From an uncultured Clostridia bacterium (GTDB taxonomy: Bacteria; Bacillota; Clostridia; TANB77; CAG-508): DNA of 64,000 nucleotides. The notes beneath the pieces are model-generated. The model was not told the DNA's origin, did no database searches, and was given only the letters and a program-made list of their open reading frames with translations. Position 1 is the first letter of the stretch. The number at the start of each line of letters is the position of its first letter. The stretch spans positions 73,986 through 137,985 of the forward strand of contig CAKPOF010000002.1 of the NCBI GenBank assembly GCA_934169725.1, read 5' to 3'. Both the position numbers and the translations under genes were made by a program. Positions 3,956-63,556 of this stretch are shown piece by piece.

Positions 3956-4139
3956 ATGATATATTAATAAAATTATACATTATGTTGCCTACAAAAATAA
4001 AAATTATCCTAGAGTTTACTACTCTAGGACAACTTTTCTAATTAAAAGTATAACAATAAAAATATGTAATATCAAGAGTTTTATTGAAAAATAATATAGG
4101 GTTATAGAAATTTTCTCTAAAAATAAATAATTATGTTTT

Positions 4140-4277
4140 AAATTCAATAAATATTATTTTTCATACCTTGGTGTCGCAATCTATTAATTAAAAATTAATA
4201 GTAGATTGCTCCAATCGCACTCACTAGCGTTCGTTTGATCGCTTACGCGGTATTTCAAAATAATATTTATTGAATTT
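4140..4277 (+). repeat. Intergenic repeat element, copy 2 (full, with both TIRs)
   Basis: TIR aaattcaataaatattattttt / caaaataatatttattgaattt bracket cataccttggtgtcgc, the hairpin caatctattaat..attaatagtagattg, and tccaatcgcactcactagcgttcgtttgatcgcttacgcggtat. Confidence 0.8.
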
Positions 4278-4463
4278 TTATAATTTAGTTTTATATAAAA
4301 AAATTCCTAGAGTAGTAAACTAAAAGAAAAATAAAATAAAACACTATAACATATCAATTTAATACTTGCAAAAATATAAAATACAAGTATATAAAAAAAT
4401 TAGTTGTAAATAATAATACTAGGATATTGAATTATCAAATAGAACAATTGGGGGAAACAAAAG

Positions 4464-5810
4464 ATGGTAAAAAATAAAAATAGTAAAATAAAAGAAAAAA
4501 TGAAAAGAAGAAATGGTATAACATTAATAGCGTTAGTTATAACTATAATAGTACTTTTAATATTAGCAGGAGTAACAATTGCAAGTATAACAGGAGAGAG
4601 TGGTATATTAAATAAGGCAACAAATGCGAGAGATAATAATGCAAAAGCATCAGCAGAAGAAAGAATAGAAATAGAAGTATTAGGAAGTTATGATAATAAT
4701 GGAAATTTAAGTTTGGATAACTTAAATAATAATTTAAAAAATGTGGATGGTTTAAAATATAATGGAGATGTAATATCAGCTAGTAATAAAATAGAAAGTT
4801 TACCAGTTACAGTAAATATAGATGGATATGATGTAGTAATAACTAAACAAGGAGATATAGAAAAACCAAAAACATTAGGAGATGCAAAATCTGAGGATAT
4901 GCTAACTAAAAGTGAAAATACACTAGTAAATGTATCAGATAAAACAGTAAAAATTCCAGCAGGATTTAAAGTAGCAGATGATAGTGAGACAACAATAGAT
5001 GAAGGAATAGTAATAGAAGATAGTAAAAAGAATCAATTTGTATGGATACCTGTAAGTAGAGAAAATTTTGAAACAAATTTTGTCAGAAGAGAAGGATATT
5101 ATAATGGTAATCTACAAGATATTTCTAATTATGGAGAAGCAGATACTACAGGGGTAAATAAAAAAGTTACGGAAACAAAAACAACACAGGAAGAGGCTAA
5201 AAACATGTATGCAAGTGTAAAAAGAAATGAAGGATTTTATATAGCAAGATATGAGGCTGGAAAAGATGATGAAGGAAATGTAGTATTTAAAAAAGGAGTG
5301 GATGTATATAATTATATACCATGGTCTGCAAATGGAAAAATGCAAGAAACTACAGGAACAGCAGGAGGAGCTATAGAATTAGCGAGAAATTTTGCAAATG
5401 CAAATAATTATAAGACAGTCACAAGTACATTAGGTTATGGAGTGCAATGGGATGCTGTAATGAAATGGATAGAAAATGTAAATAATCCAAATGTAGAAGG
5501 AAAAACTTGTATACAAGATAGTACTGAAATTGGATGGTATAGTGATAATTATGGAGGAAATCTACAAAAAACAGGAACAGATATAAGAGAAGAAAATAAA
5601 GGTTCAAATCAAGTAAAAAAAATATACGACCTTGCAGGAAATGTTTGGGAATGGACAATGGAATCTTATTATGCTAATGACAGAGTTTATAGGGGAGGTT
5701 CTTGTTATGATGTTGGCTCTAAACTACCAATTTCTAGTCGTTGCAATTACATTCCTTCTGGTAGTCATTCAAATGTTGGTTTTCGTACCACTTTATTTTT
5801 AAATAGCTAA
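4464..5810 (+). CDS. Prepilin-like N-terminal (class III signal-like) protein with a C-terminal FGE-sulfatase/C-type-lectin-fold domain
   Basis: N-terminus MKRRNGITLIALVITIIVLLILAG (prepilin-like, Ala at +5). C-terminus DLAGNVWEWTMESYYANDRVYRGGSCYDV...SRCNYIPSGSHSNVGFRTTLFL matches the FGE/DUF323 WEW...RGGS...GFR pattern. Confidence 0.7.
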   Translation: MVKNKNSKIKEKMKRRNGITLIALVITIIVLLILAGVTIASITGESGILNKATNARDNNAKASAEERIEIEVLGSYDNNGNLSLDNLNNNLKNVDGLKYNGDVISASNKIESLPVTVNIDGYDVVITKQGDIEKPKTLGDAKSEDMLTKSENTLVNVSDKTVKIPAGFKVADDSETTIDEGIVIEDSKKNQFVWIPVSRENFETNFVRREGYYNGNLQDISNYGEADTTGVNKKVTETKTTQEEAKNMYASVKRNEGFYIARYEAGKDDEGNVVFKKGVDVYNYIPWSANGKMQETTGTAGGAIELARNFANANNYKTVTSTLGYGVQWDAVMKWIENVNNPNVEGKTCIQDSTEIGWYSDNYGGNLQKTGTDIREENKGSNQVKKIYDLAGNVWEWTMESYYANDRVYRGGSCYDVGSKLPISSRCNYIPSGSHSNVGFRTTLFLNS

Positions 5811-6260: not shown

Positions 6261-6851
6261 GTGGTTAATATATATACCAGTAAGTTTATAAATATAATAT
6301 CTTTGATTATTACAATAATAATCTATTTAGTCATGAATTTTTTTATCAATCATGTAAATTTTAAAGTCAATAAAGTTAAATTTAATGCTGATTTTGTATC
6401 AGAAAAAACTATAAATCTAAACAATATTAATTCGGTAAATTCAAGTGAAAAAACTTTAGAACAAAATTTAATTGAAGAACAATGGTATATACAAATTGAC
6501 AAAATATCATTAAAAGCACCCATTGCAAAAGATACGACGAAAGATGTGTTGGAAAATTATGTAGGACATTTTAATGAAAGTCCGTTAGATAAAGGAAATA
6601 TATGTTTAGCTGCGCATAACAGAGGATACAAAAATAACTATTTTAATAGAATAAAAGAATTGAAAGAAGGAGATGAAATAAAATATGTATATAAAAATAT
6701 AGAAAGAACATATGAAGTAACGAAGCAAGAAATTATTAAAAACACGGATTGGGAAAATTTAGAAAACACGGAAGAAAATAAAATAACATTAATTACATGT
6801 GTGGAAAATGAACCTGATTATAGAAGGTGCATACAAGGAATAGAAAAATAA
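6261..6851 (+). CDS. Sortase-family transpeptidase (GTG start; start uncertain)
   Basis: N-terminal TM; catalytic-region motifs LAAHN...ITLITC (TLxTC); the Arg expected near the C-terminus is present. Confidence 0.75.
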   Translation: MVNIYTSKFINIISLIITIIIYLVMNFFINHVNFKVNKVKFNADFVSEKTINLNNINSVNSSEKTLEQNLIEEQWYIQIDKISLKAPIAKDTTKDVLENYVGHFNESPLDKGNICLAAHNRGYKNNYFNRIKELKEGDEIKYVYKNIERTYEVTKQEIIKNTDWENLENTEENKITLITCVENEPDYRRCIQGIEK

Positions 6852-6864
6852 AGGATGTGAAAAA

Positions 6865-8136
6865 TTGTATAAGAAAAAAGTAAAAGTAAAAATTATAAGT
6901 ATAATATTGATAATATTAAGTTTAAATAGTTTGAATTTTATAAATTCTGTAAAAGCAATTAGTGTTGATAATACTAATATAAACTCAGTAGAAGATTGCG
7001 GAGCATTACTAAAATATAAAGGAATGATAGTAAAAACATTTTATGCTGAATATACAGGAGAGGGAAAAAGATATCCAGCATATTGTTTAGACAAAACTAA
7101 AACAGGAGTATCTGATCAAAATCCATCATATTCTGTGTCTATTGAAAATGCAATAAATGATGTGAAATTATGGAGAATTTTAATAAATGGATATCCATAC
7201 AAGACAATAGAAGAATTAGGCGTAGCTAATAGAGAAGAAGCTTTTACTGCTACAAAACAAGCTGTATATACATATATTCATAATAATCAATTAGGTGATT
7301 ATGAGGCAATAGGAGAAGCTGGTAAAAGAACATTAAATGCGTTGTATAAAATAGTGAATAATGCAAATAATTCTAATGAAGTACAAATTTCTAATAGAAT
7401 AGATATTAGTAAGATTAAAGATGAATGGGAACAAGATAATGTACAATTAGAATATGTTTATAAAAAGTATAAAGTTACAGCAAATACTAGGATATCAAAC
7501 TATAAAGTAAAAATAGATATGGCAACAAAAGTTGAGGGTATAAAAATTGTAGATGAAAAAAATAATGAAAAGGAAGAATTTTTACCAAATGAAATTTTTA
7601 AAATATTAGTACCAATAAAAAATCTTAAAGAAGATGGAGAAATAAAAATAAGTATAGATACACAAGTAGAAACTAAACCGATATTATATGGTAGAGCCTC
7701 TAGTTCAAATTTACAAGATTATGCATTAACAGCATCAACATATGAAGATGGAAAAGGAGAAATATCAGATAAATACGGAAAAAATGAAACAAAAATTATA
7801 ATAATAAAACAAGATGAGAATACTGGAGAAAGAATAGAAGGAACAGAATTTCAAATATTAGACGAAAACAAAAATGTTTTATATACAAATTTAAAAACAG
7901 ATAAAGATGGAATAATTAAAGTTGAAAATTTAATACCAGGAAAATATTATATAAAAGAAACTAAAGCAAAAGATGGATATGAGTTATATAAAGATTTAAT
8001 TGAAGTAGATATAAGCTTAAATGAAGAGTTTTCTGTAAATGTAAATAATAGTAAAACAGAAAAACCAAGTATAGAAAAAATACAAGAAATAGAAGAAGTG
8101 AAAAATAAAAAAATATTACCAGTCACAGGAATGTAG
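6865..8136 (+). CDS. Secreted surface adhesin-like protein with a thioester-type domain, a CnaB-type domain and a C-terminal LPVTG
   Basis: Signal peptide; AYCLDKTK...TATKQAVYTY resembles the TED Cys/Gln motif pair; GTEFQILDENKNV...IPGKYYIKETKAKDGYEL resembles a CnaB/SpaA fold; ends KKILPVTGM followed by a stop. TTG start at 6865. Confidence 0.7.
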   Translation: MYKKKVKVKIISIILIILSLNSLNFINSVKAISVDNTNINSVEDCGALLKYKGMIVKTFYAEYTGEGKRYPAYCLDKTKTGVSDQNPSYSVSIENAINDVKLWRILINGYPYKTIEELGVANREEAFTATKQAVYTYIHNNQLGDYEAIGEAGKRTLNALYKIVNNANNSNEVQISNRIDISKIKDEWEQDNVQLEYVYKKYKVTANTRISNYKVKIDMATKVEGIKIVDEKNNEKEEFLPNEIFKILVPIKNLKEDGEIKISIDTQVETKPILYGRASSSNLQDYALTASTYEDGKGEISDKYGKNETKIIIIKQDENTGERIEGTEFQILDENKNVLYTNLKTDKDGIIKVENLIPGKYYIKETKAKDGYELYKDLIEVDISLNEEFSVNVNNSKTEKPSIEKIQEIEEVKNKKILPVTGM

Positions 8137-8213
8137 AAAAAAGTGTTATATGACAATGTTTTATATAAATTTGTTGTATAGCACTTTAATTATTAAATAA
8201 AAAATAAATCATT

Positions 8214-8250
8214 TTCATTTTCATACCTTGGTGTCGCAAATCACATATTA
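8214..8250 (+). repeat. Truncated repeat element (left end only), copy 3
   Basis: ttcataccttggtgtcgcaaatcacatattaaaatcat; the 3' conserved half is missing. Confidence 0.65.
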
Positions 8251-8341
8251 AAATCATATTTTTAACTTTTTAAAACTATTGAATAAAAAAGTAAATTTTG
8301 ATAGAATATATTGGAAAATAAAAAATAAGGGAGCGTAAAGA

Positions 8342-11463: not shown

Positions 11464-11513
11464 AGTATTTTTTTAAAATTTAATATGTATTATTTTTAAA
11501 ATGTTCATTAATT

Positions 11514-11664
11514 AAAGTTCAATATTTATTATTTTTTTTCATACTTTGGTGTCGCAAACTGCATATTAAAATTACTAGTATGTAGTTTGCTCCAAATCGC
11601 ACTCACTATCGTTCGTTTGGTCGCTTACGCAGTATGAAAAAAATAATAAATATTGAACTTTAAT
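11514..11664 (+). repeat. Intergenic repeat element, copy 4 (full, with TIRs)
   Basis: TIR aaagttcaatatttattatttttttt / gaaaaaaataataaatattgaactttaat bracket catactttggtgtcgc, the hairpin caaactgcatat..atgtagtttg, and tccaaatcgcactcactatcgttcgtttggtcgcttacgcagtat. Confidence 0.85.
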
Positions 11665-11782
11665 TTAAAACATAACAATATAAATATCATTAATATTAAT
11701 TTATGTTATTACAATAAAATGTTTAAATTAATATTATAGAGTAAATACTTATAAAGAATAAAAAAAGAAAAAAGGTGAATTT

Positions 11783-16497: not shown

Positions 16498-16570
16498 ATA
16501 ATAGAAATTAATATCACCATTCTACAAAAAATGACATAAAATATAATAGCTTTATTTTGAGGTGATATTA

Positions 16571-17380
16571 ATGAAAAGAATAAAAGTTGGTGATATAGTA
16601 AGTAGAAAATCATATAATAATGATATTTTATTTAGAGTAAAAAGGATATTAAATAAAAAAAATGACAAAATTGTGATATTATCAGGAGTAATAGAAAGAG
16701 TAGAAGCAGATTGCAATATAAAAGATTTAGAATTAGCAAGCAGTGATAGAGTAAACAATGATTTGCTATATATCCAAGGAAGAATAGATAATAAAGCAGG
16801 TAATAAACTAGAAGGAAAAAGGACACAGTATATAATAACTGGTAAAATATTGCATTTAGATGGAGATAGAAAATATAGTGAAAAATCATATCGATATTAT
16901 AAAAAATTAGGATTAAATGCTATAGTTAAAAATATACCTGAATATAAACAATCAAAAGTTGTTTATAATTTATTAAGAACATATGAACCAGATATATTAA
17001 TAATAACTGGTCATGACGGAATGATAAAAAATTCAACAAGATATAATGATTTGGGTAATTATCGAAATTCAAAATATTTTATAGAAACAGTAAAAGAGGC
17101 AAGAAAATATGATAAAGAAAAAAACAACAATTTAGTTATATTTGCAGGGGCTTGTCAAAGCTATTTTGAGGCACTTATATCAGCTGGTGCAAATTTTGCA
17201 TCATCACCTGGAAGAATATTAATAGATTTTATTGATCCATTAATAGTGGCAGAAAAAGTTGCTATAACAGAAAAATATAAATATATAACAATAGATGATA
17301 TTGAAGATGAATTACGTGATGGAAAAAAAGGAATAAATGGAATTGGTGCAAACGGAAAAATGTATAGAATAATAAAATAA
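16571..17380 (+). CDS. yabG: Sporulation-specific protease YabG
   Basis: Whole-length YabG-family similarity (IKVGDIVSRKSYNNDI...TGHDGM...FAGACQSYFEAL). Confidence 0.8.
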   Translation: MKRIKVGDIVSRKSYNNDILFRVKRILNKKNDKIVILSGVIERVEADCNIKDLELASSDRVNNDLLYIQGRIDNKAGNKLEGKRTQYIITGKILHLDGDRKYSEKSYRYYKKLGLNAIVKNIPEYKQSKVVYNLLRTYEPDILIITGHDGMIKNSTRYNDLGNYRNSKYFIETVKEARKYDKEKNNNLVIFAGACQSYFEALISAGANFASSPGRILIDFIDPLIVAEKVAITEKYKYITIDDIEDELRDGKKGINGIGANGKMYRIIK

Positions 17381-17483
17381 AAAAATGTAACAAAAATGAA
17401 ATATAAATGTAAAATAAAAGTAATAAACATTAAAAAACATTGAAAAACAAGCAAAGACAGGATGCTTTAAAAAAATACTTTTT

Positions 17484-17512
17484 TTGACAATTATCCCTTG
17501 AAATGCTATAAT
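17484..17512 (+). promoter_or_regulatory. Consensus sigma-A promoter upstream of veg
   Basis: TTGACA (17484-17489), a 17-nt spacer, then TATAAT (17507-17512). Confidence 0.7.
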
Positions 17513-17541
17513 TAAGCCATCTTAAGGGAGTAGGTGATAGC

Positions 17542-17841
17542 GTGATTTGTAAAAATGACATAACAAATCTAAAAACTGACATCTTAGAAAAAGTAGGGCA
17601 AAAGATAATAGTAAAAGGTTCTTTAGGTAGAAGTAAAGCCTTTGAAAAAGAAGCTACGATAGAAAAAGCATATCCAAATATTTTTGTTGTTAAATATGAG
17701 GAAAATAATAGAAATGTAACATATAGTTATACAGATGTTTTAACAAGAACTGTTGAGGTTGAGGTTTTTGATGGAGATTCATATAGTCCATTAATTCCAC
17801 CACCTGTTAACTTTAAAAAAAGAAAAACACATGAAATGTAA
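17542..17841 (+). CDS. veg: Veg protein (GTG start)
   Basis: DITNLKTDILEKVGQKIIVKGSLGRSKAFEKEATIEKAYPNIFVV matches the Veg family; RBS gggag upstream. Confidence 0.8.
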   Translation: MICKNDITNLKTDILEKVGQKIIVKGSLGRSKAFEKEATIEKAYPNIFVVKYEENNRNVTYSYTDVLTRTVEVEVFDGDSYSPLIPPPVNFKKRKTHEM

Positions 17842-17842
17842 A

Positions 17843-17872
17843 AGAAAACTGTAAAAGGTTTTCTTTTTTTTC
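17843..17872 (+). terminator. Rho-independent terminator after veg
   Basis: agaaaac...gttttct followed by tttttttt. Confidence 0.6.
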
Positions 17873-17941
17873 TTAAATATGTTCTAAATTCTACAAGCAT
17901 TAATATAATGAAAGTAAATAAGTCTAGTTAGGAGGTAAAAA

Positions 17942-19513
17942 ATGGTTGTAGATACAATAAAAGAAAATTTGAGAATAAATAAAAAAGTAGCAACAAAAAA
18001 AGAAATTATATTTGTTGAAGGTGATGTAATAGTTCCAGATGCAAAACCAGATGTTTTAAATGTAATTTGTACAAGTGGGGTGGTAAGTGTTTATAAAAAG
18101 GAAATTATAGATGAAAAAATAAAAATGGAAGGTCAAATTGATACATATATTATGTATATGTCAGATGATAATCAAGGCAATATAAGGGGAATAAATACGA
18201 GTTTAGAATTATCAGAAGTTATAAATATATCAAACATAACAAGTGAAATGAAAAGTAATATAAATTCTAAGATAAAAGAAATTGAGGCTAAAGTTGTAAA
18301 TGAGAGAAAGATATCAATTAAAGCGACACTAGAAATAAGCATAGAGTTTTTTTCAGAAGAAAATATCTCAATAATAAATAATTTAGAAAGTGAAAATGAA
18401 ATAAAAATGCTACAAGAAGAATTAGCTGTAAATTCATTAGTAGGAGAAGGAGAAACAAAAATATTTACTAAAGATAATATTGCTATAGATAATGCTGATA
18501 ATTTAATAGAAATTTTAAAAGTAGATATGAATATATGTAATAAAGATATAAAAATTAGTTACAACAAAGTATTAACAAAGGCGGAAGCAGAAATAAAGAT
18601 AATATATTTAACAGAAGATAATAGGATAAATAAAACAATATCAAAAATACCTATAATTGGTTTTATAGATATACCAGAAGTAAATGAAGGAAATCTTTGT
18701 GATTCTAATTATGAAATAAAAAATATAATGATAAAACCAAATTCTACTGAAGAACATTCTATATATGTAGAATTTGAAATAGGGGTTAATACTGTTGTAT
18801 ATACTCAAAAAACAATTAACATTATTCAAGATATATATAGTCCATGCGAAAATATTGATTTCAATAAAAAAACTGTTAGAGTTATATCACGTAAAGAACA
18901 AAAAGTGAATACTAAAGAAATAAAGGAAAGAATAAAAATTGAAGAATTAGAAGATAAAGATTTAATAGATGTAAATATAATTCCAAATATGACTAAAGAA
19001 AATATAGAAGGAAACCAAATTCAATATAGTGGAGAATTAGAGTTAAGGTTTATGATGATGGGAAATGACATGCAAATGGTAACAACTAGAAAAAATATTT
19101 CCTTTGAATATAATGTTGAAAATGTAAGTGATATAGATAATACTAATGTAAAAAGTAATATAGAAATAACAAATCAAGATTTTGTTATACAAGACAATGG
19201 AGAGATTTTGGTAAATGTAAAAATGATTTTTTATACAAACATAGAGAAAAATGCTAGTATAAATACTATTGATGAAATAGAAGTGAATGGAGAAAGAGAA
19301 GAGCAAGATTATAGCTTAATTATGTATATTGTAAAAAAGGGAGATAGCTTATGGAAAATTGCTAAAAAATATGGAAGTACAATTGAAGATATTGTGAACT
19401 TAAATGGTATAGAAGATCCAGAAGTTATATCTCCAGGACAAAAAATCTTTATACCAAGATACAGAAGAAATAAAATCAGTAAACAGCAACAATCAATGGT
19501 AAATTATGGATAA
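17942..19513 (+). CDS. LysM-domain protein with DUF3794-like repeats (SafA/spore-coat-assembly-like)
   Basis: C-terminal LysM IVKKGDSLWKIAKKYGSTIEDIVNLNGI...PGQKIFIP. Confidence 0.7.
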   Translation: MVVDTIKENLRINKKVATKKEIIFVEGDVIVPDAKPDVLNVICTSGVVSVYKKEIIDEKIKMEGQIDTYIMYMSDDNQGNIRGINTSLELSEVINISNITSEMKSNINSKIKEIEAKVVNERKISIKATLEISIEFFSEENISIINNLESENEIKMLQEELAVNSLVGEGETKIFTKDNIAIDNADNLIEILKVDMNICNKDIKISYNKVLTKAEAEIKIIYLTEDNRINKTISKIPIIGFIDIPEVNEGNLCDSNYEIKNIMIKPNSTEEHSIYVEFEIGVNTVVYTQKTINIIQDIYSPCENIDFNKKTVRVISRKEQKVNTKEIKERIKIEELEDKDLIDVNIIPNMTKENIEGNQIQYSGELELRFMMMGNDMQMVTTRKNISFEYNVENVSDIDNTNVKSNIEITNQDFVIQDNGEILVNVKMIFYTNIEKNASINTIDEIEVNGEREEQDYSLIMYIVKKGDSLWKIAKKYGSTIEDIVNLNGIEDPEVISPGQKIFIPRYRRNKISKQQQSMVNYG

Positions 19514-20204
19514 GATTTATTCTAGAACAAAAATAAAATTACCAAATTTGATAAAGGACTCAAAAAAATGGAAAAAAATATTAATAATTATAATATTAAT
19601 TATTATGATATTTTTTTCTATTGATATGACTATGAGTGCTGTAAATCCAATATTTGAAACTTTATGTGAAGATAAAGCTAAAAGTATAGCAACTATTGTA
19701 TCTAATGAACAAGCTACAAAAGTTATAAATGAATATAAATATGAAGATTTATTTTCAATTGAAAAAGATGTTAATGGTAACATTATAATGATAAAATCAA
19801 ATATAAATCCAATAAATGGTATAATTTCTGATGTTGGGCAAAAAATTCAAGAAGAATTAAATAAACAAGGAAGAAATAATATACAAATAGCATTGGGAAG
19901 TTTTACTGGTATAAAATTATTATCAGGAAGAGGACCAGGGATTAATATACAAATATCATCAATTGGAAATGTTGAAACAGATTTAAGAAGTGAATTTACA
20001 GAACAAGGAATAAATCAAACTTTACACAGAGTTTATTTACAAGTGGATTGCGAAGTAAGTATATTAACACCTTTTAAAGATATAGATAAAAAAATATCTA
20101 ATCAAGTATTGTTATTAGAAAATGTAATAATTGGAACAGTACCAAATACATATTACAATATAGAAGGAATAGATAAAAGCCAAGCAGTAGATATAATAGA
20201 ATAA
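19506..20204 (+). CDS. yunB: Sporulation protein YunB
   Basis: N-terminal TM plus YunB-family length and similarity; placed after a SafA-like gene in a sporulation context. Confidence 0.65.
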   Translation: MDKIYSRTKIKLPNLIKDSKKWKKILIIIILIIMIFFSIDMTMSAVNPIFETLCEDKAKSIATIVSNEQATKVINEYKYEDLFSIEKDVNGNIIMIKSNINPINGIISDVGQKIQEELNKQGRNNIQIALGSFTGIKLLSGRGPGINIQISSIGNVETDLRSEFTEQGINQTLHRVYLQVDCEVSILTPFKDIDKKISNQVLLLENVIIGTVPNTYYNIEGIDKSQAVDIIE

Positions 20205-45413: not shown

Positions 45414-45457
45414 AAATTTATGTTACAATTCATAGTTTATAAAATAGATTATTTTTA

Positions 45458-45516
45458 AATTTGATAATATAATATATTGTTTTTTTATACCTTGGTGTCG
45501 CAAACCCATATTAAAA
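45458..45516 (+). repeat. Truncated repeat element (left TIR plus start of core), copy 5
   Basis: aaatttgataatataatatattgtttttttataccttggtgtcgcaaacccatattaaaaat; the left TIR is about 85% identical to that of copy 7. Confidence 0.65.
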
Positions 45517-45599
45517 ATAAATTTTATAAAAAATATGGTAAAAAATAAAAAATTATGATAGGATATTAATGAAAAAAATAAAGATTTAATGGTGATAAA

Positions 45600-52831: not shown

Positions 52832-53653
52832 ATGAAAGACAAAATTACAGTTTTAATAGCTGATGATAATCAAGAATTTAGTCAAACATTGGCATCATAC
52901 ATAGATTCACAAGATGATATGGAGGTTATAGCAAAAGCGAAAGATGGAACAGAAGTAATAGATATAATTACAAACACTATACCAGATATAATGTTATTAG
53001 ATGTAATAATGCCACATTTAGATGGTTTAGGAGTTTTGGAAAATATGAATAAAATAAAATTAGCAAAAAAACCAATTTGTATAATGCTATCTGCAGTAGG
53101 GCAAGACAAAGTAACACAAAGAGCAATAGAATTGGGTGCACAATATTATGTAGTAAAACCATTTGACATAGAAGTATTGATAAAAAGAATGAGGGAATTT
53201 AAATACTATAAACCATCACCACAAAATAATAATAATTTTATTACAAGAGAAACTAAACCACAGTATATTGATATTTCACCTGAAGATACTAATGTTGAAA
53301 AAAATTTAGAAGCATTGGTAACAAATATTATTCATGAGGTAGGTGTTCCAGCACATATAAAGGGATACCAATATTTAAGAGAAGCTATAATGATGGTGGT
53401 AAACGATATTGATGTAATAAATCAAATAACAAAAAGTTTATATCCACAAATAGCGCACAAATTTAGCACAACTCCAAGTCGCGTAGAAAGAGCAATAAGA
53501 CATGCTATTGAAGTAGCATGGGGACGTGGACAACAAGAAACAGTAGAAAAAATATTTGGATATACAATTTCAGCTTCAAAAGGAAAGCCAACCAACTCAG
53601 AATTTATAGCAATGATTGCTGATAAATTACGTTTAGAATTAAAGAGTGCATAG
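52832..53653 (+). CDS. spo0A: Stage 0 sporulation protein A (master regulator)
   Basis: Receiver domain (LIADDNQE...[11 protein letters not shown]) and the Spo0A-specific C-terminal domain [19 protein letters not shown]...[15 protein letters not shown]. Confidence 0.95.
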
Positions 53654-54981: not shown

Positions 54982-55866
54982 ATGGAAAGAATTATGACTG
55001 TAGAAGAAAGAATTAGACGAGCAGAAGAAAGATATGAACAGAAAAAAAGAAATGAAGGAATGGGAATATCAACTGTCAAAAAAGAAGTTGAAAAAGATAA
55101 AAAAGATTTAAAATTATTAAAAAAAATGGTAATTCAATTAATTATATGTACATTAATTTATTTAGTAGTTTATACTATTCAAAATAATGAATATATTTTT
55201 TCACAGGATTTTATAAATAAAGTAAATGAGATAATATCATATGATATTAATTTTAAAAATATATATGAACAGATAAAAGAGAAAATGAAAAATAGTTCAG
55301 AAAATAAAGATAATGGTGAAAATTCAGATTGTAATCAAGAAAATAATTTAAACGAAGAAAACCAGAATGGTATAGGTGGAGCACAGGAAAATATAGAAGA
55401 AAATAAGGAAGAAAATGAGCAGAGTAACCAGAATGAAAATTTATCAGAAGAGGAACAAGAAATATTAAAAATAAAAAATACAGCAAATTTTATTAAGCCA
55501 ATAGATGGAACAATAAGTTCAAGTTATGGTTTAAGAGAAAATGCAACAGGAAGAGTACCTAAAAATCATACTGGTGTAGATATAGCTGCAGTAACAGGAA
55601 CAAAAATAAAAGCAACAACTGATGGAGAGGTAGTAATGGTATCTGAAGAGGGGGATTATGGAAAACACATAAAAATGCAAATAGGTGAAGTAAGTGTAAT
55701 TTATGCACATTGTAATAATATATATGTAAAAGAAGGAGACAAAATAACACAAGGACAAGAAATAGCAGAAGTTGGAAGTACTGGCAATTCAACAGGTCCA
55801 CATTTACATTTTGAAATACGAATATCAGAAAAAACAGTAGATCCTCAAAAGATAGTTGAATTATAA
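54982..55866 (+). CDS. M23 (LytM-domain) peptidase in the SpoIVFA position
   Basis: N-terminal TM, low-complexity N/E-rich linker; HTGVDIAA...GDYGKHIKM...GSTGNSTGPHLHFEI catalytic motifs; overlaps spoIVFB. Confidence 0.75.
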   Translation: MERIMTVEERIRRAEERYEQKKRNEGMGISTVKKEVEKDKKDLKLLKKMVIQLIICTLIYLVVYTIQNNEYIFSQDFINKVNEIISYDINFKNIYEQIKEKMKNSSENKDNGENSDCNQENNLNEENQNGIGGAQENIEENKEENEQSNQNENLSEEEQEILKIKNTANFIKPIDGTISSSYGLRENATGRVPKNHTGVDIAAVTGTKIKATTDGEVVMVSEEGDYGKHIKMQIGEVSVIYAHCNNIYVKEGDKITQGQEIAEVGSTGNSTGPHLHFEIRISEKTVDPQKIVEL

Positions 55867-56566
55867 ACTATTAAGGAGTGAAAAAATGAAATTCAAGATA
55901 GATCTGAAAATTTTTTTATTAATCATTTTATTTTTATGCACAAATCAAATAAAAATATATGGAATGATGATGTTATTTGCAATTATACATGAGTTAGGTC
56001 ATTTAATAGCAGGAATAATATTAAAAATGAAGCCTAATCAATTAAAGATAAATCCATTGGGAATCTCCATAGAATTTGATATTAAAAATAGAGATTATAA
56101 TATAAAAATTCAAAAAGCAAATTTATTGGAAATAAAGAAAATTATTGTTGCATTGGCTGGACCATTAACTAATTTTATAATTATTTTAATTTTAAGATAT
56201 ATAAATATATTTTCTGAATATGATAAACTTATAATGACATATTCAAATGCTTTATTAATAGTATTTAATATTTTGCCGATATATCCTTTAGATGGAGGCA
56301 GAGTTTTAAAAAGTTTAATATATATTTATAAAGGAAAGCATTTAGCGGAAGAATATACATATAATACATCATATATAATATTAATATTGTTAACAGCAAT
56401 AAGTAGTGTAACTGTGTTATGGTTAAAAAATATATCAGTATTTTTTATAATAATATTTTTATGGGGATTACAAATAAAAGAAAGTATAAAATATAAAAAT
56501 AGAAAGAAACTGTATGAACTTATAAAATATGAAACAGAGAGTTACAATTCACAGCTTATAAAATAA
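55856..56566 (+). CDS. spoIVFB: SpoIVFB-type site-2 protease (M50, pro-sigma-K processing)
   Basis: HELGH zinc motif and NILPIYPLDGG. Confidence 0.8.
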   Translation: MNYKLLRSEKMKFKIDLKIFLLIILFLCTNQIKIYGMMMLFAIIHELGHLIAGIILKMKPNQLKINPLGISIEFDIKNRDYNIKIQKANLLEIKKIIVALAGPLTNFIIILILRYINIFSEYDKLIMTYSNALLIVFNILPIYPLDGGRVLKSLIYIYKGKHLAEEYTYNTSYIILILLTAISSVTVLWLKNISVFFIIIFLWGLQIKESIKYKNRKKLYELIKYETESYNSQLIK

Positions 56567-56608
56567 ACTATTATTAAATTTGTATAATAAAAAAAATAAA
56601 TCGTTTTT

Positions 56609-56754
56609 AAATTTAATAATATATTGTTTTTTTCATACCTTGGTGTCGCAAACCACATATAAAAATTACTAGTATGTAGTTTGCTCCAAATCGCACTCAC
56701 TATCGTTTGTTTGATCGCTTACGCAGTATTTCAAAAAAATATATTATTAAATTT
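56609..56754 (+). repeat. Intergenic repeat element, copy 6 (full, with TIRs)
   Basis: TIR aaatttaataatatattgttttttt / caaaaaaatatattattaaattt; core cataccttggtgtcgc; hairpin caaaccacatat..atgtagtttg; tccaaatcgcactcactatcgtttgtttgatcgcttacgcagtat. Confidence 0.85.
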
Positions 56755-56886
56755 TTATAAGTTAAATATTTTAAGTTGGAAATTGTAATAACAGAGAAAT
56801 TTGGTGAGAAAAAACTAAAAATTCCTATTGAAAATAAAACAAATTAATAGTAAACTATTACTAAAGAAAAAGTGGAGGGAATGCAA

Positions 56887-58296
56887 ATGATAAAAAAAGA
56901 AAATGGAGTAACTTTAATTGCATTAACTATAGCTGTTATAATAATATTAACTTTAACTGGCATGATAGTGTATTCGGCTAAAGATAGTGTTTATATAAAA
57001 AATTTAACCAATATGAAAAATGATATTTCTAATTTAAGAGATAAAGTATCATCATATTATTCAGAATATGGAAAAATACCAGCAACAACTGAATATACAG
57101 ATGTGAGTAATTTGCAATCAGCTGATATTTTGGGTGAAAATGATACAGGAAAGTTTTTGGTTATTGAATTAAAATATTTAGATGGATTAACATTAAATTA
57201 TGGAAAAGATTATGAAAAATATAAAGCAGGAGAATATAGCAATATAACGGATTTAACAGATATATATGTAATAAATGAAAATAGTAATAATATATTTTAT
57301 ATAGAAGGAATACGAGTTAGAGAAAATGGACAAACTAAAATGTATTATACAGATTATACAAATGGAGATTCAGAAAAAGTTAATTTAAAACAAGTTTCAG
57401 ATTGGCATGAGGATATCAATGAAAGTGGAGAAAAAATAATAACTAATGGTGTGACCGAAATGAAAATAGGTGATTATATCAATTATAATCCAAAGGGTGA
57501 AGCCAAATATAAGACATATACTTCAAATGAGAGTGTAAATGGATACCAAGATCAAACATTTGAATTAGACAGTTATACTAGTGGATGGAGAATTTTGGGA
57601 TTTGATGAAGAAAAAAATGAGATATTACTTGTATCAGCTGATTCTATAGGACCTGATATAGGAGGAGAAAAAGGAAGCGGAATAGACGAAAATGATAGTA
57701 GTTGCTTTGTATTAAAATCAGAGGAAGGATATGCTAATGGAATAAAGGAATTAGACAATATAAGTAAAATGTATGGGCAAGGGAAAGGTGCTGATTCCGC
57801 TAGAAGTATAACAATAAATGATGTAAATAAATTAACAGGATATGATCCAGAAACTTCCAATTATGGAGCAGGACAAAAATATGCTTATGGTAATGAAATG
57901 ACATATAGTGGATTATCAAAATACTATGATGAAAAAAATGATGAGTGGAAAAGACTTGATACAAATGAACCAATAACTATAAAATCAAATTATTATACAT
58001 ATAGTATAAATGATAAAATATTAAGTGATAGTATAGAAGCAGATTTGTTAAATGTAAAAAGAAAAACATATTGGACTAAAGATAGATTTGCATATACAAT
58101 GGACAATGGATGTTATTTTGGAATAAGATGTGTATATAAAAATTCAACATATGGAATGGAATATGGAGGACTATATTCGACATTTGGAAATAAAGGACAG
58201 TTAAGTTATGGAGTTAGACCAGTAGTTTCATTAAAATCTAATGTAGTTGTTTTACAAAAAGATGGAACATCAGAAAATCCACATGAAATACAATAA
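56887..58296 (+). CDS. Prepilin-like N-terminal protein, paralogue of 4464-5810, with an uncharacterised C-terminal domain
   Basis: MIKKENGVTLIALTIAVIIILTLTG (same N-terminal pattern, Ala at +5); C-terminal ...GCYFGIRCVYKN...SYGVRPVVSL may be a degenerate GFR-type motif. Confidence 0.6.
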   Translation: MIKKENGVTLIALTIAVIIILTLTGMIVYSAKDSVYIKNLTNMKNDISNLRDKVSSYYSEYGKIPATTEYTDVSNLQSADILGENDTGKFLVIELKYLDGLTLNYGKDYEKYKAGEYSNITDLTDIYVINENSNNIFYIEGIRVRENGQTKMYYTDYTNGDSEKVNLKQVSDWHEDINESGEKIITNGVTEMKIGDYINYNPKGEAKYKTYTSNESVNGYQDQTFELDSYTSGWRILGFDEEKNEILLVSADSIGPDIGGEKGSGIDENDSSCFVLKSEEGYANGIKELDNISKMYGQGKGADSARSITINDVNKLTGYDPETSNYGAGQKYAYGNEMTYSGLSKYYDEKNDEWKRLDTNEPITIKSNYYTYSINDKILSDSIEADLLNVKRKTYWTKDRFAYTMDNGCYFGIRCVYKNSTYGMEYGGLYSTFGNKGQLSYGVRPVVSLKSNVVVLQKDGTSENPHEIQ

Positions 58297-58549: not shown

Positions 58550-59344
58550 ATGGGAGAAGTAATTGTTATAACATCAGGAAAAGGTGGAGTAGGAAAAACA
58601 ACTACAACAGCAAATTTGGGGTCAAGTTTAGCTTTAGAAGGAAAAAAAGTAGCATTAATAGATACAGATATAGGATTACGTAATTTAGATGTCGTAATGG
58701 GATTAGAAAATAGAATTGTATATGATATTGTAGATGTTGTAGAAGGAAAATGTAAATTAAGACAAGCATTAATAAAAGATAAAAGATTTAAAGAATTATA
58801 CCTATTACCAGCAGCACAAACAAGAGATAAAAGTGCAGTAAATGAAGAACAAATGAAAGATTTAGTGGGTAAATTAAAAGAAGAATTCGATTATATATTG
58901 ATTGACTGTCCAGCAGGTATAGAACAAGGCTTTAAAAATGCTATTGCAGGTGCAGATAGAGCAATAGTAGTTACAACAGCAGAAATCTCGGCAATAAGAG
59001 ATGCAGATAGAATAATAGGTCTTTTGGAATCATCAGAAATAAAAAATCCAGAATTGGTAATAAATAGGATAAGAACAAACATGGTAAGAAGAGGAGAAAT
59101 GATGGATGTTGATGATATAGTAGATTTATTATCAATAGATTTAATAGGTGTAGTACCAGATGATGAATATATAATAACTCAAACCAATAAAGGTGAACCA
59201 GTAATACAAAATAGAAAAGCACCATCAGGAAAAGCATATATAGAGATTGCAAAGAGAGTCCTAGGAGAAAATATAGAAGTTACAATACCAGGTAGAGAAA
59301 AAGGCTTTTTTGCAAGACTAAAAAGATTATTTAGTAGAAGATAA
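58550..59344 (+). CDS. minD: Septum site-determining ATPase MinD
   Basis: ITSGKGGVGKTTTTANLG deviant Walker A; full-length MinD similarity. Confidence 0.95.
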   Translation: MGEVIVITSGKGGVGKTTTTANLGSSLALEGKKVALIDTDIGLRNLDVVMGLENRIVYDIVDVVEGKCKLRQALIKDKRFKELYLLPAAQTRDKSAVNEEQMKDLVGKLKEEFDYILIDCPAGIEQGFKNAIAGADRAIVVTTAEISAIRDADRIIGLLESSEIKNPELVINRIRTNMVRRGEMMDVDDIVDLLSIDLIGVVPDDEYIITQTNKGEPVIQNRKAPSGKAYIEIAKRVLGENIEVTIPGREKGFFARLKRLFSRR

Positions 59345-59376
59345 CAATAGAACAAAAGTTGGAGGGAAATTTAATA

Positions 59377-60018
59377 ATGTTTGAAAACATAATAAAATTC
59401 TTTAATAAATTTATAAAAAAAGAAGAAAAAGAGGTACCAAATTCAAAAGATGCTGCAAAAGAAAGATTACATTTAGTTTTAATGCAAGATAGAGCTAATG
59501 TTTCTGCAGACTTTTTAGAATTGATGAAACAGGAAATCATAGAAGTTATAAAAAAATATATAGATGTAGATGAAAGAGCAATAGATGTTAGATTAACAAA
59601 TAAGGAAAATGAAGATGGAACAAATGGAGCTCCAGCATTATATGCTAATATTCCTATTTTAAATATAAAAAATGAAGCAAGAAAAGTAGATAAAGTAGAA
59701 AACAAAGAAGAAATAAAAGAAACAAAAAAAGAAGAACAAAAAGAAAAGTTAGAAGATAGTACAGAAAATAAAGAGCCACAAGAAGAAAAGGAAGAAAAAG
59801 AAACTGAAAAACAACAAGAAGAAAAAAGTAAAGAGCAAAATGAAGATGTAATAAATGAAGAGTCAAAAAAAGAAGTAAAAGATGACAAAGAAGAAATAAA
59901 AGTTGAAGAATTAAATGAAAATGAAGAAGAAACTAAAAAAGCTGATGAAGACAAAGAAGAAAAAATTGTAAAACAAAAGAGCAAAAGAGGAAGAACTAAA
60001 AAAGTTAAATCAAAATAA
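59377..60018 (+). CDS. minE: MinE topological specificity factor with a C-terminal extension of about 125 aa rich in K/E
   Basis: MFENIIKFFNKFIKK...AKERLHLVLMQDR...VDVRLTNKENEDG is a MinE core, then a low-complexity KEE-rich tail to 213 aa. Confidence 0.75.
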   Translation: MFENIIKFFNKFIKKEEKEVPNSKDAAKERLHLVLMQDRANVSADFLELMKQEIIEVIKKYIDVDERAIDVRLTNKENEDGTNGAPALYANIPILNIKNEARKVDKVENKEEIKETKKEEQKEKLEDSTENKEPQEEKEEKETEKQQEEKSKEQNEDVINEESKKEVKDDKEEIKVEELNENEEETKKADEDKEEKIVKQKSKRGRTKKVKSK

Positions 60019-62257: not shown

Positions 62258-62863
62258 TTGAAAATTTTAAAAATAAAAAAAATACCAAAAATATTAATAA
62301 TTCTCATAATATTAATAATATTAATATTTTTTCTAATAAATAAGAGTAAAAAAAATATTATTGGAAATAATAAAAACAGTCAAGATATAATTAATAATAT
62401 TTTAAATATTAGCTCATATGAAGCAACAATAGATTTAGAAGTAAATAGTAATAAAAATAGCAATACATATACACTAAAACAAAAATACATATATCCTAAT
62501 CAATATGAACAAGAAATAATAGAACCAGAAGATATGAGAGGTATAAAAATAATAGCTAAAGAAAATGAAATAAAATTAGAAAATCCAAAAATAGAAATTA
62601 ATAAAACATATAAAGATAACAAATATGAAGATAATTATATAAATTTGTATACATTTATAAAAAAATATAAGGAAAGTGAAAACGCAAAAAGTAAAGAAAT
62701 AAATAATGAAATAGTGCTTAGTATGGAAGAAGATAATAAATACTGTAAATATGTATCATTATATATAGACAAAAGCACGGAAAAACCGATTAAACTAGAA
62801 ATAAAGAATGATAACAAAAAAACATTAATCTACATATTATATAAAGAAGTAAAGTTAACTTAA
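62258..62863 (+). CDS. Hypothetical secreted or membrane-anchored protein
   Basis: N-terminal TM/signal anchor; no recognisable motif. Confidence 0.45.
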   Translation: MKILKIKKIPKILIILIILIILIFFLINKSKKNIIGNNKNSQDIINNILNISSYEATIDLEVNSNKNSNTYTLKQKYIYPNQYEQEIIEPEDMRGIKIIAKENEIKLENPKIEINKTYKDNKYEDNYINLYTFIKKYKESENAKSKEINNEIVLSMEEDNKYCKYVSLYIDKSTEKPIKLEIKNDNKKTLIYILYKEVKLT

Positions 62864-63287: not shown

Positions 63288-63363
63288 TAAATGTAAAAAA
63301 GTAATCTAGTTTTAGATTACTTTTTAAGTGCTGTGTTACAATTCGTAATTCTAAATATTTATA

Positions 63364-63508
63364 AAATTTGATACTATATTGTTTTTTTATACATTTGTGT
63401 CGCAAACCACATATTAAAATTATTGGTATGTAGTTTGCTCCAATTCGCACTCACTATTGTTCGTTTGATCACTTACGCGGTATTTAAAAACAATATAGTA
63501 TCAAATTT
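63364..63508 (+). repeat. Intergenic repeat element, copy 7 (full, with a perfect 23-bp TIR)
   Basis: aaatttgatactatattgttttttt ... aaaaacaatatagtatcaaattt; core tatacatttgtgtcgc; hairpin caaaccacatat..atgtagtttg; tccaattcgcactcactattgttcgtttgatcacttacgcggtat. Confidence 0.85.
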
Positions 63509-63556
63509 AGAAATGATTTATTTCATAAACTGTGAATTTTAACACAGCAAGTAAAA

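Follow-up and report, generated by a model that had tools for sequence, protein, structure and literature searches.

MinC, a cytoplasmic inhibitor of FtsZ, is usually encoded 5' of minD. In a 64,000-nucleotide stretch of DNA from an uncultured Clostridia bacterium (GTDB lineage Bacteria; Bacillota; Clostridia; TANB77; CAG-508), comprising positions 73,986 to 137,985 of the forward strand of contig CAKPOF010000002.1 (GenBank assembly GCA_934169725.1; hereafter the window, with a G+C content of 25%), the place directly upstream of minD is taken by an open reading frame of 469 amino acids, which we call gene X (56887–58296, + strand, starting at ATG 56887 and with its stop codon inside these coordinates). 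A palindromic repeat lies just upstream of X, and another copy of it lies upstream of a second gene with a similar N-terminus, at 4464–5810. What kind of protein does X encode, and is its function bound up with minD, with the repeat or with the second gene? On balance, X is probably a modular pilin-like surface protein with an exchangeable head, transcribed from its own promoter, and the repeat next to it a recent insertion.

Results

A conserved carrier joined to exchangeable heads

The gene called in the first-pass annotation of the window is a real open reading frame, preceded by a ribosome-binding site. Its parts are as follows.

56874–56879, + strand: ribosome-binding site GGAGGG, 7 nucleotides 5' of ATG 56887; GGAGG is kept in relatives
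56887–56907, + strand: leader MIKKENG, short and basic, ending in Gly (-1), invariant in alignments A1 and A2
56908–56973, + strand: hydrophobic helix VTLIALTIAVIIILTLTGMIVY, residues 8–29, with Ala, not Glu, at +5
56887–57402, + strand: N-terminal carrier module, residues 1–172, 43–78% identical across the clade
57403–58293, + strand: head of 'type B', residues 173–469, of no known family; AlphaFold2 (AF2) predicted local distance difference test (pLDDT) mostly 85–97

Searches of X against Pfam and NCBIfam returned nothing above threshold, and none of its 381 homologues has a name or a Pfam family. Scans of the family libraries brought up LoiP and DUF6377 (17 bits where 36.7 was required), both of which we rejected as sub-threshold noise. 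A literature search with the N-terminal peptide motif returned no match.

Clustering of the best 120 homologues of X separated 48 full-length relatives from 63 that share only residues 1–172 and continue into an FGE-like head, and from nine with a third head type. The FGE-like heads of those 63 proteins cluster with the head encoded at 4464–5810. The boundary between carrier and head is clean, at residue ~172, and one and the same locus hosts three head types as well as carrier-only forms. Homologue P0033, for example, is 77% identical to X over residues 1–172 and bears a head that is 39% identical to that of 4464–5810, P0037/L018 combines the X locus with an FGE-like head, and the heads at loci L022, L027 and L045 are 54–59% identical to the 4464–5810 head. 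Across species, the X locus thus encodes a type B head, an FGE-like head (single or tandem), another head or none, in proteins of 169 to 847 residues. Recombination between two conserved stretches, the carrier and the minD flank, may account for the repeated replacement of the head between species.

Used alone as a query, the head of X placed type B heads on ~70 proteins with the N-terminus GITLIALVITIIVLLILAG. It also placed one on the canonical prepilin P0179, which has the N-terminus KRNGFTLIELL and scored 29.9 bits against TIGR02532 (cut-off 16.3). The gene for P0179 (8734–11410 of L130) is likewise an orphan: it lies directly 3' of a gene of the FtsW/RodA family, amid genes for penicillin-binding protein, RecU and DivIVA, outside any pilus operon.

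A fixed place between an M50 protease gene and minD

A scan with the alignment of the N-terminal module, in which each species was represented by a single genome, gave 79 loci. All come from uncultured Clostridia of the gut (Clostridium sp. CAG:343, Clostridium sp. 26_22 and metagenome-assembled genomes, whose sources include Hadza people, chicken, rabbit and other guts). In 77 of these 79 species loci the gene for the N-terminal module lies between an M50 protease gene and minD, in the order M23-M50-X-MinD-MinE-RodA-Dus, and the same order was found in L001–L020 and in the contigs of P0002, P0017, P0055, P0001 and P0037. The block reads as follows in the window, where rodA and then dus lie 3' of minE.

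54982–55866: M23 peptidase gene, 5' of X and of the M50 gene
55856–56566, + strand: gene for an M50 site-2-type metalloprotease of 236 residues (Pfam PF02163)
58550–59344, + strand: minD, 3' of X (TIGR01968, 406 bits)
59359–60018, + strand: minE (TIGR01215, 62 bits)

MinD is 90–98% identical across the species of the clade. The distance from the M50 stop codon to the start of X is 32–52 nucleotides in most related species, and that from X to minD is 60–700 nucleotides, mostly 170–400, in nearly all. At three loci (L094, L051 and L095) 0.8–2.7 kb of additional sequence separates X from minD and, at L094, includes an extra FGE-like open reading frame, and in L072 (5561–10210) and L086 (6235–9550) the carrier-plus-head gene stands in two full tandem copies at the M50-minD locus.

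The M50 gene had at first been named spoIVFB. SpoIVFB is longer than 236 residues and has a C-terminal CBS domain. The product of the M50 gene is a peptidase of the generic PF02163 type that matched no NCBIfam model at E ≤ 1e-5, hence no SpoIVFB-specific one, and for this reason 'spoIVFB' stays a mere label.

How pilin-like is the carrier?

The N-terminus of X runs through NG into VTLIALTIAVIIILTLTG and has the layout of a class III signal peptide, that is, a hydrophilic leader, Gly at -1 and ~20 hydrophobic residues. The leader likewise counts six residues ahead of the Gly in 205 of 347 motif-matching relatives, and after this invariant Gly all relatives continue with [IV][TS][LM][IV][SAT]L and then a hydrophobic stretch. 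AF2 (pLDDT 82) predicts a single helix from residue 6 to residue 61 followed by a small beta sheet, giving the 'lollipop' shape, and beyond the carrier a linker and then the well-predicted head. The topology of X is predicted as N-in/C-out, with all but six residues extracytoplasmic. The soluble part of the carrier (residues 30–172) makes up a family of its own without a Pfam model. A search of 1.84 billion representatives found it in 540 clusters, in every case at residues ~30–175, and in seven species the carrier occurs by itself in proteins of 169–184 residues, the size of a pilin. We read the carrier as pilin-like because of the invariant Gly and the motif after it, the AF2 shape, a match (weak, E 0.003) of the family profile to the Geobacter pilin N-terminal domain 9egp_A, and the head that X has in common with a canonical prepilin.

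Several results weigh against this reading. Glu5 is nearly universal among type IV pilins. The +5 residue in 355 motif-matching relatives of X is Ser (191), Ala (97) or Thr (52), together 340 of the 355, and in no case Glu. The Pfam N_methyl model PF07963 scored 13 bits on X (cut-off 21.2) and matched one of 32 family members, with an E-value of 0.0067, and TIGR02532 gave no match to X at E ≤ 1. When the predicted structure was compared with the PDB by Foldseek, type IV pilins were among the best matches, none of them significant (E 0.3–2.6). Genes for a prepilin peptidase or for pilus assembly were found neither among the open reading frames of the window scanned with Pfam nor among the Pfam-annotated called genes of the fetched relative loci, and X is an orphan amid division and sporulation genes. 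The head of X is of an uncharacterised type: residues 172–469 had no Pfam match even at E ≤ 10, and the head fold had no significant match in the PDB or BFVD. With Glu5 absent, the motif thresholds missed and no pilus machinery seen, we call X modular-pilin-like and not a proven type IV pilin.

The same evidence bears on the most serious alternative, a possible though less likely one, in which X is a common membrane protein of type II, held by a signal anchor, whose helix stays uncleaved and never enters a filament, with the carrier serving as a stalk for a variable extracellular domain. Such a protein would need no Glu5, would miss the pilin motif models, would find no significant pilin fold match and would have no pilus genes nearby, and related heads do sit on many orphan genes amid housekeeping genes. 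However, Gly(-1) and the fixed six-residue leader are conserved beyond what a plain anchor needs, the carrier-only forms are pilin-sized, and the head is common to a canonical prepilin.

If X is pilin-like, its 172-residue carrier would anchor it in the membrane with the C-terminus outside. The carrier would comprise a basic leader of six residues, a Gly, a hydrophobic helix of 22 residues running into a helix of ~55 residues, and the small beta sheet. A prepilin peptidase may cut after Gly7, and X may take its place at a filament tip, the filament being of type IV. The carrier would display an exchangeable head of ~300 residues, here of the uncharacterised type and probably ligand-binding. 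The analysis shows the architecture, the synteny, the exchange of heads, the conserved promoter-like block and the insertion, and from there we infer surface exposure, processing by a peptidase or incorporation into a filament, and binding of a ligand.

Comparison with known systems

The closest known design is that of modular pilins such as PilB and PilC of Streptococcus sanguinis, which carry a vWA module and a lectin module, respectively (Raynaud et al., 2021; PMC8179133). Modular pilins are proposed to stand exposed at the tip of the filament, and the grafting of a head onto a pilin is an established design (PMC8179133). X is like them in joining a small N-terminal module to a bulky exchangeable one, in the variety of its architectures and in the occurrence of its head on a canonical prepilin. 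It differs from them in lacking Glu5, in failing the curated models of the class III signal peptide, in having no pilus operon and in having a carrier family of its own.

Absence of Glu5 is also a trait of GspK, the minor pseudopilin of type II secretion, a tip subunit with an inserted domain and with the operon partners GspI and GspJ. By analogy, X as a large Glu5-less pilin-like protein with an extra domain would fit a location at the tip, whereas it has no sequence similarity or significant fold similarity to GspK and no partners of the GspI/J type were seen at its locus.

As for the heads, the FGE-sulfatase/C-type-lectin fold (PF03781) occurs at the X locus in other species and at 4464–5810, and the head of X is unrelated to it. 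The order of motifs in the X head (WR[VI]L...L[IV]S, YW..., GVRP..[SW]L) is presumably also that of DUF6273 (PF19789), a family of Firmicutes and phage surface proteins. Two DUF6273 phage proteins stood at ranks 4 and 9 among the BFVD fold matches of the head, with probabilities of 0.30 and 0.02, which are not significant; since the head has no Pfam match at E ≤ 10, we treat the likeness to DUF6273 as a lead only.

X is a variant of the modular pilin-like design that has no name yet and is fixed at a single locus throughout a clade of uncultured Clostridia from the gut. Glu5-less pilin-like N-termini bear the same heads as canonical prepilins. The surface biology of uncultured low-GC gut Clostridia is little charted though these bacteria are abundant in human and animal guts, and with its cassette-like outer domain X is a candidate for a role in adhesion, sensitivity to phages or interaction with the host, and offers a natural marker of differences between strains and between species. 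A broader proposal, which we regard as a long shot, is that N-termini in which Gly is followed by [IV][TS][LM][IV][SAT]L and which lack Glu5 mark an unrecognised and widespread head-display system of Firmicutes with X as its one core-genome member. In this proposal the system would take in both the X carrier and the much larger GITLIALVITIIVLLILAG group and would be processed or assembled unlike canonical type IV pilins, and X would have stayed beside the M23/M50 and minDE-rodA genes because its carrier acts at the division or sporulation septum.

A link between modules and not between whole genes

How, then, does X relate to the other pilin-like gene of the window?

4464–5810, + strand: second pilin-like gene, with an FGE-like head (PF03781, 26 bits, cut-off 23.3) and the generic N-terminus GITLIALVITIIVLLILAG

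X had been described as a paralogue of this gene with the same N-terminal architecture and Ala at +5. The N-terminal likeness holds: BLASTP aligned the first ~53 residues of the two proteins, with 19 of 53 identical (E 6e-7), and a G[IV]TLIAL N-terminus occurs in no open reading frame of the window other than X and 4464–5810. Paralogy holds in part. The two proteins draw on one pool of modular proteins with alike Glu5-less N-termini, but the likeness ends after ~50 residues and the heads are unrelated. When the head alignments were compared by hhalign, the probability was 0.7% (E 0.077) over 12 columns (GVRPVVSL against GFRTTLFL), which correspond to a terminal strand G-x-R-x-x-x-x-L. With that value, and with no FGE match in Pfam at E ≤ 10, the suggestion that GIRCVYKN and GVRPVVSL of X are degenerate FGE motifs falls away. 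X and 4464–5810 are therefore not paralogues as whole genes and are linked at the level of modules. The family link between them shows in other species, where the head encoded at the X locus can be FGE-like and reach 59% identity to that of 4464–5810.

Just 3' of 4464–5810, at 6261–8136, lie a sortase gene and a gene for a thioester-domain/SpaA-fold protein ending in LPVTG, so that two distinct surface-display systems adjoin each other there. FGE/C-type-lectin heads are classic targets of diversity-generating retroelements. An open reading frame resembling bAvd (22976–23377, PF22296) stands behind an open reading frame of 301 residues without a family (together 22023–23377), and the pair may be the remnant of such a retroelement. 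We found no reverse transcriptase in the window, and no pair of template and variable repeats for the 3' end of either pilin-like gene.

A probable promoter of its own, and a repeat that arrived late

Where the M50 gene ends and X begins lie a promoter-like sequence and the palindromic repeat. The window features that concern us here are the following.

56541–56789, + strand: palindromic element of 249 bp, whose central part is the repeat copy 56598–56788
56828–56856, + strand: promoter-like TTGAAA-N17-TAAACT directly 5' of X, found by consensus scan
4126–4299, + strand: repeat copy at the FGE-head gene, ending 165 nucleotides 5' of ATG 4464

The block CTATTGAAAATAAA..AATTAATAGTAAACTA.TACTAAAGA..GGAGG upstream of X is kept throughout the clade, and the 9-mer TAGTAAACT occurs close 5' of X in ~70 of the 79 species loci. 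In relatives this promoter block overlaps the final codons of the M50 gene. X would accordingly be transcribed from a conserved sigma-A-like promoter of its own that, in relatives, overlaps the M50 end.

Similarity between the leaders of X and 4464–5810 had also been reported. Two words, AAAAATTCCTA and TAGTAAACTA, do occur within the window only upstream of X and of 4464, but the statistics are marginal (p ~0.007–0.02 by collinear k-mer shuffle, ~0.1 by local alignment), and the match is weaker at L129, the orthologous FGE locus, which has TAATCAACT in place of TAGTAAACT. The similarity consists of pieces of the conserved promoter block of X that recur upstream of 4464.

The palindromic element is bounded by an 8-bp direct repeat, AACAGAGA, at 56533–56540 and 56790–56797. 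Removing the element and one copy of this repeat in silico regained the M50 reading frame and its conserved tail, which ends in KLKIPIENKTN and the stop codon. The flanking direct repeat and the frame restored on deletion show that 56541–56789 was inserted and that 8 bp of the target were duplicated in the process. The insertion cost the M50 gene its last 19 codons and put nine element-derived codons in their place. Every same-species contig that covers the site has the element, always in one orientation, and it was found upstream of X orthologues in none of the 79 other species-representative genomes and at none of the loci L001–L009. The repeat upstream of X is thus best read as a mobile palindromic element that, in this species alone, entered the M50 gene at its 3' end and spared the X promoter.

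As the first-pass annotation stated, a repeat copy stands in the same orientation, here +, upstream of both pilin-like genes, the copy at X (56598–56788) ending 99 nucleotides before its ATG. The repeat is more widespread than this pair. The window holds five full copies (1477–1637, 4126–4299, 11504–11694, 56541–56789 and 63352–63542) and two partial ones (8186–8254 and ~45416–45519), and the repeat core was found on 30 metagenome contigs (L100–L129), where many short contigs break inside the repeat. Some 25 further copies adjoin unrelated genes, such as those for enolase, KsgA, Asd, a dehydrogenase and a response regulator, and several lie between convergent genes. The one exception is L129, a related organism in which the repeat at the FGE locus is kept (80% identity over 539 nucleotides by BLAST). 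A general tie of the repeat to the pilin-like family is thus not borne out, since the tie is absent in other species and the other copies flank unrelated genes.

Each copy consists of an asymmetric core of ~95 nucleotides, kept across hosts that differ in base composition, and of arms that pair over 21–59 positions with 0–5 mismatches within a copy, whereas between copies their median identity is 50%. At one locus of another organism, seen in different samples (L114 7435–7604 against L112 2697–2866; also L116 and L124), with flanks 97% identical, the 170 nucleotides of arms plus core are inverted at 100% identity. This inversion in place indicates that the element can flip, which would explain why the arms within a copy are complementary. 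Like ERIC, RUP and Correia-type repeats, which resemble miniature inverted-repeat transposable elements, the repeat is short, non-coding, intergenic, palindromic and multicopy and was inserted with a target duplication; unlike them, it has an asymmetric ~95-nucleotide core, arms specific to each copy and an inversion polymorphism at one locus.

Scanning the whole window with Rfam at gathering thresholds returned nothing, and E-value scans of two repeat copies returned only generic long-hairpin matches (plant miRNA precursors). Searches of the repeat against phages, plasmids and the literature gave no match beyond primer-like coincidences in papers. By eye, no convincing target duplication was seen at the other repeat copies, and proof by comparison with an empty site is limited to the copy at 56541–56789. 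No transposase was linked to the repeat. Two open reading frames elsewhere in the window, one with HTH_38 (20574–21866, − strand) and one with an rve integrase core (26410–27015, + strand), are probably transposase genes or fragments of the IS30 and IS3 types, respectively.

These results make it very unlikely that the repeat is a regulatory device which X has in common with the FGE-head gene, either as a cassette or as a terminator or invertible switch gating read-through or expression. In its favor are the copies upstream of both pilin-like genes of the window, the copy kept at the FGE locus of a related organism, the arms and core found inverted at one locus elsewhere, and a long hairpin that could terminate or stabilise transcripts. 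But a duplicated regulatory cassette, as the first-pass annotation proposed, is at odds with a clean, species-specific insertion of the transposition type that damaged the 3' end of the M50 gene, carries an 8-bp target duplication, is missing at the X locus from all 79 species representatives and from L001–L009, and has a single orientation in same-species contigs. The ancestral promoter of X is moreover retained 3' of the element, and a bias of the repeat toward pilin-like genes, proposed as the alternative to the cassette, fails on the copies at enolase, KsgA, Asd and response-regulator genes or between convergent genes.

No minC next to minDE

That X stands directly 5' of minD where minC was expected, with no minC nearby, proved real and conserved (77 of 79 species). 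We searched with a hidden Markov model of four solved MinC C-domains and with a B. subtilis MinC sequence, whose residues 1–102 are identical to PDB 2m4i and whose C-terminal part aligns to other solved MinC chains. Neither query found anything at E ≤ 10 when the six-frame open reading frames of the window were searched together with those of 129 loci (1.5 Mb altogether), from which it follows that minC is nowhere adjacent to minDE in the clade. The presence of minDE without an adjacent minC across the clade is noteworthy.

With MinC, X shares the gene position directly upstream of minD-minE and nothing more. It differs in having no similarity to the N- or C-domain of MinC (PF03775 had no Pfam match in X), in its predicted extracytoplasmic topology and in its own promoter. 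Nothing in the predicted topology, the promoter or the spacing to minD points to X replacing MinC. The adjacency is weak evidence of a tie because the whole block is syntenic, and it would reflect this synteny, not a MinC-like role.

Least likely of all is that X is tied to its neighbors, as a division or sporulation factor replacing MinC or as a partner or substrate of the M23 and M50 proteins in the manner of SpoIVFA/SpoIVFB/BofA: its constant place before minD without a MinC-like frame in the window or the 1.5 Mb, a carrier kept where the head is lost, a highly conserved transmembrane helix beside an intramembrane protease gene and the sporulation genes nearby would suit such a factor, but X is predicted to lie outside but for six residues while MinC acts on cytoplasmic FtsZ, has no MinC domain, has its own promoter and a gap to minD, and exchanges its head at a rate untypical of core division proteins.

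Other features of the region

The MinE protein encoded next to minD (59359–60018) is 219 residues long, with the MinE domain confined to residues 29–100 and followed by a Glu/Lys-rich, low-complexity tail of ~120 residues; MinE of relatives is likewise long (193–230 residues). The Spo0A gene lies ~3 kb 5' of the X locus. Sporulation and germination genes around the locus (16562–20204, 52832–53653 and 62258–62863) encode the YabG protease, a SipL-like protein, YunB, Spo0A and a GerS-like lipoprotein, and since such genes surround the region we take the organism to be a spore former despite its G+C content of 25%.

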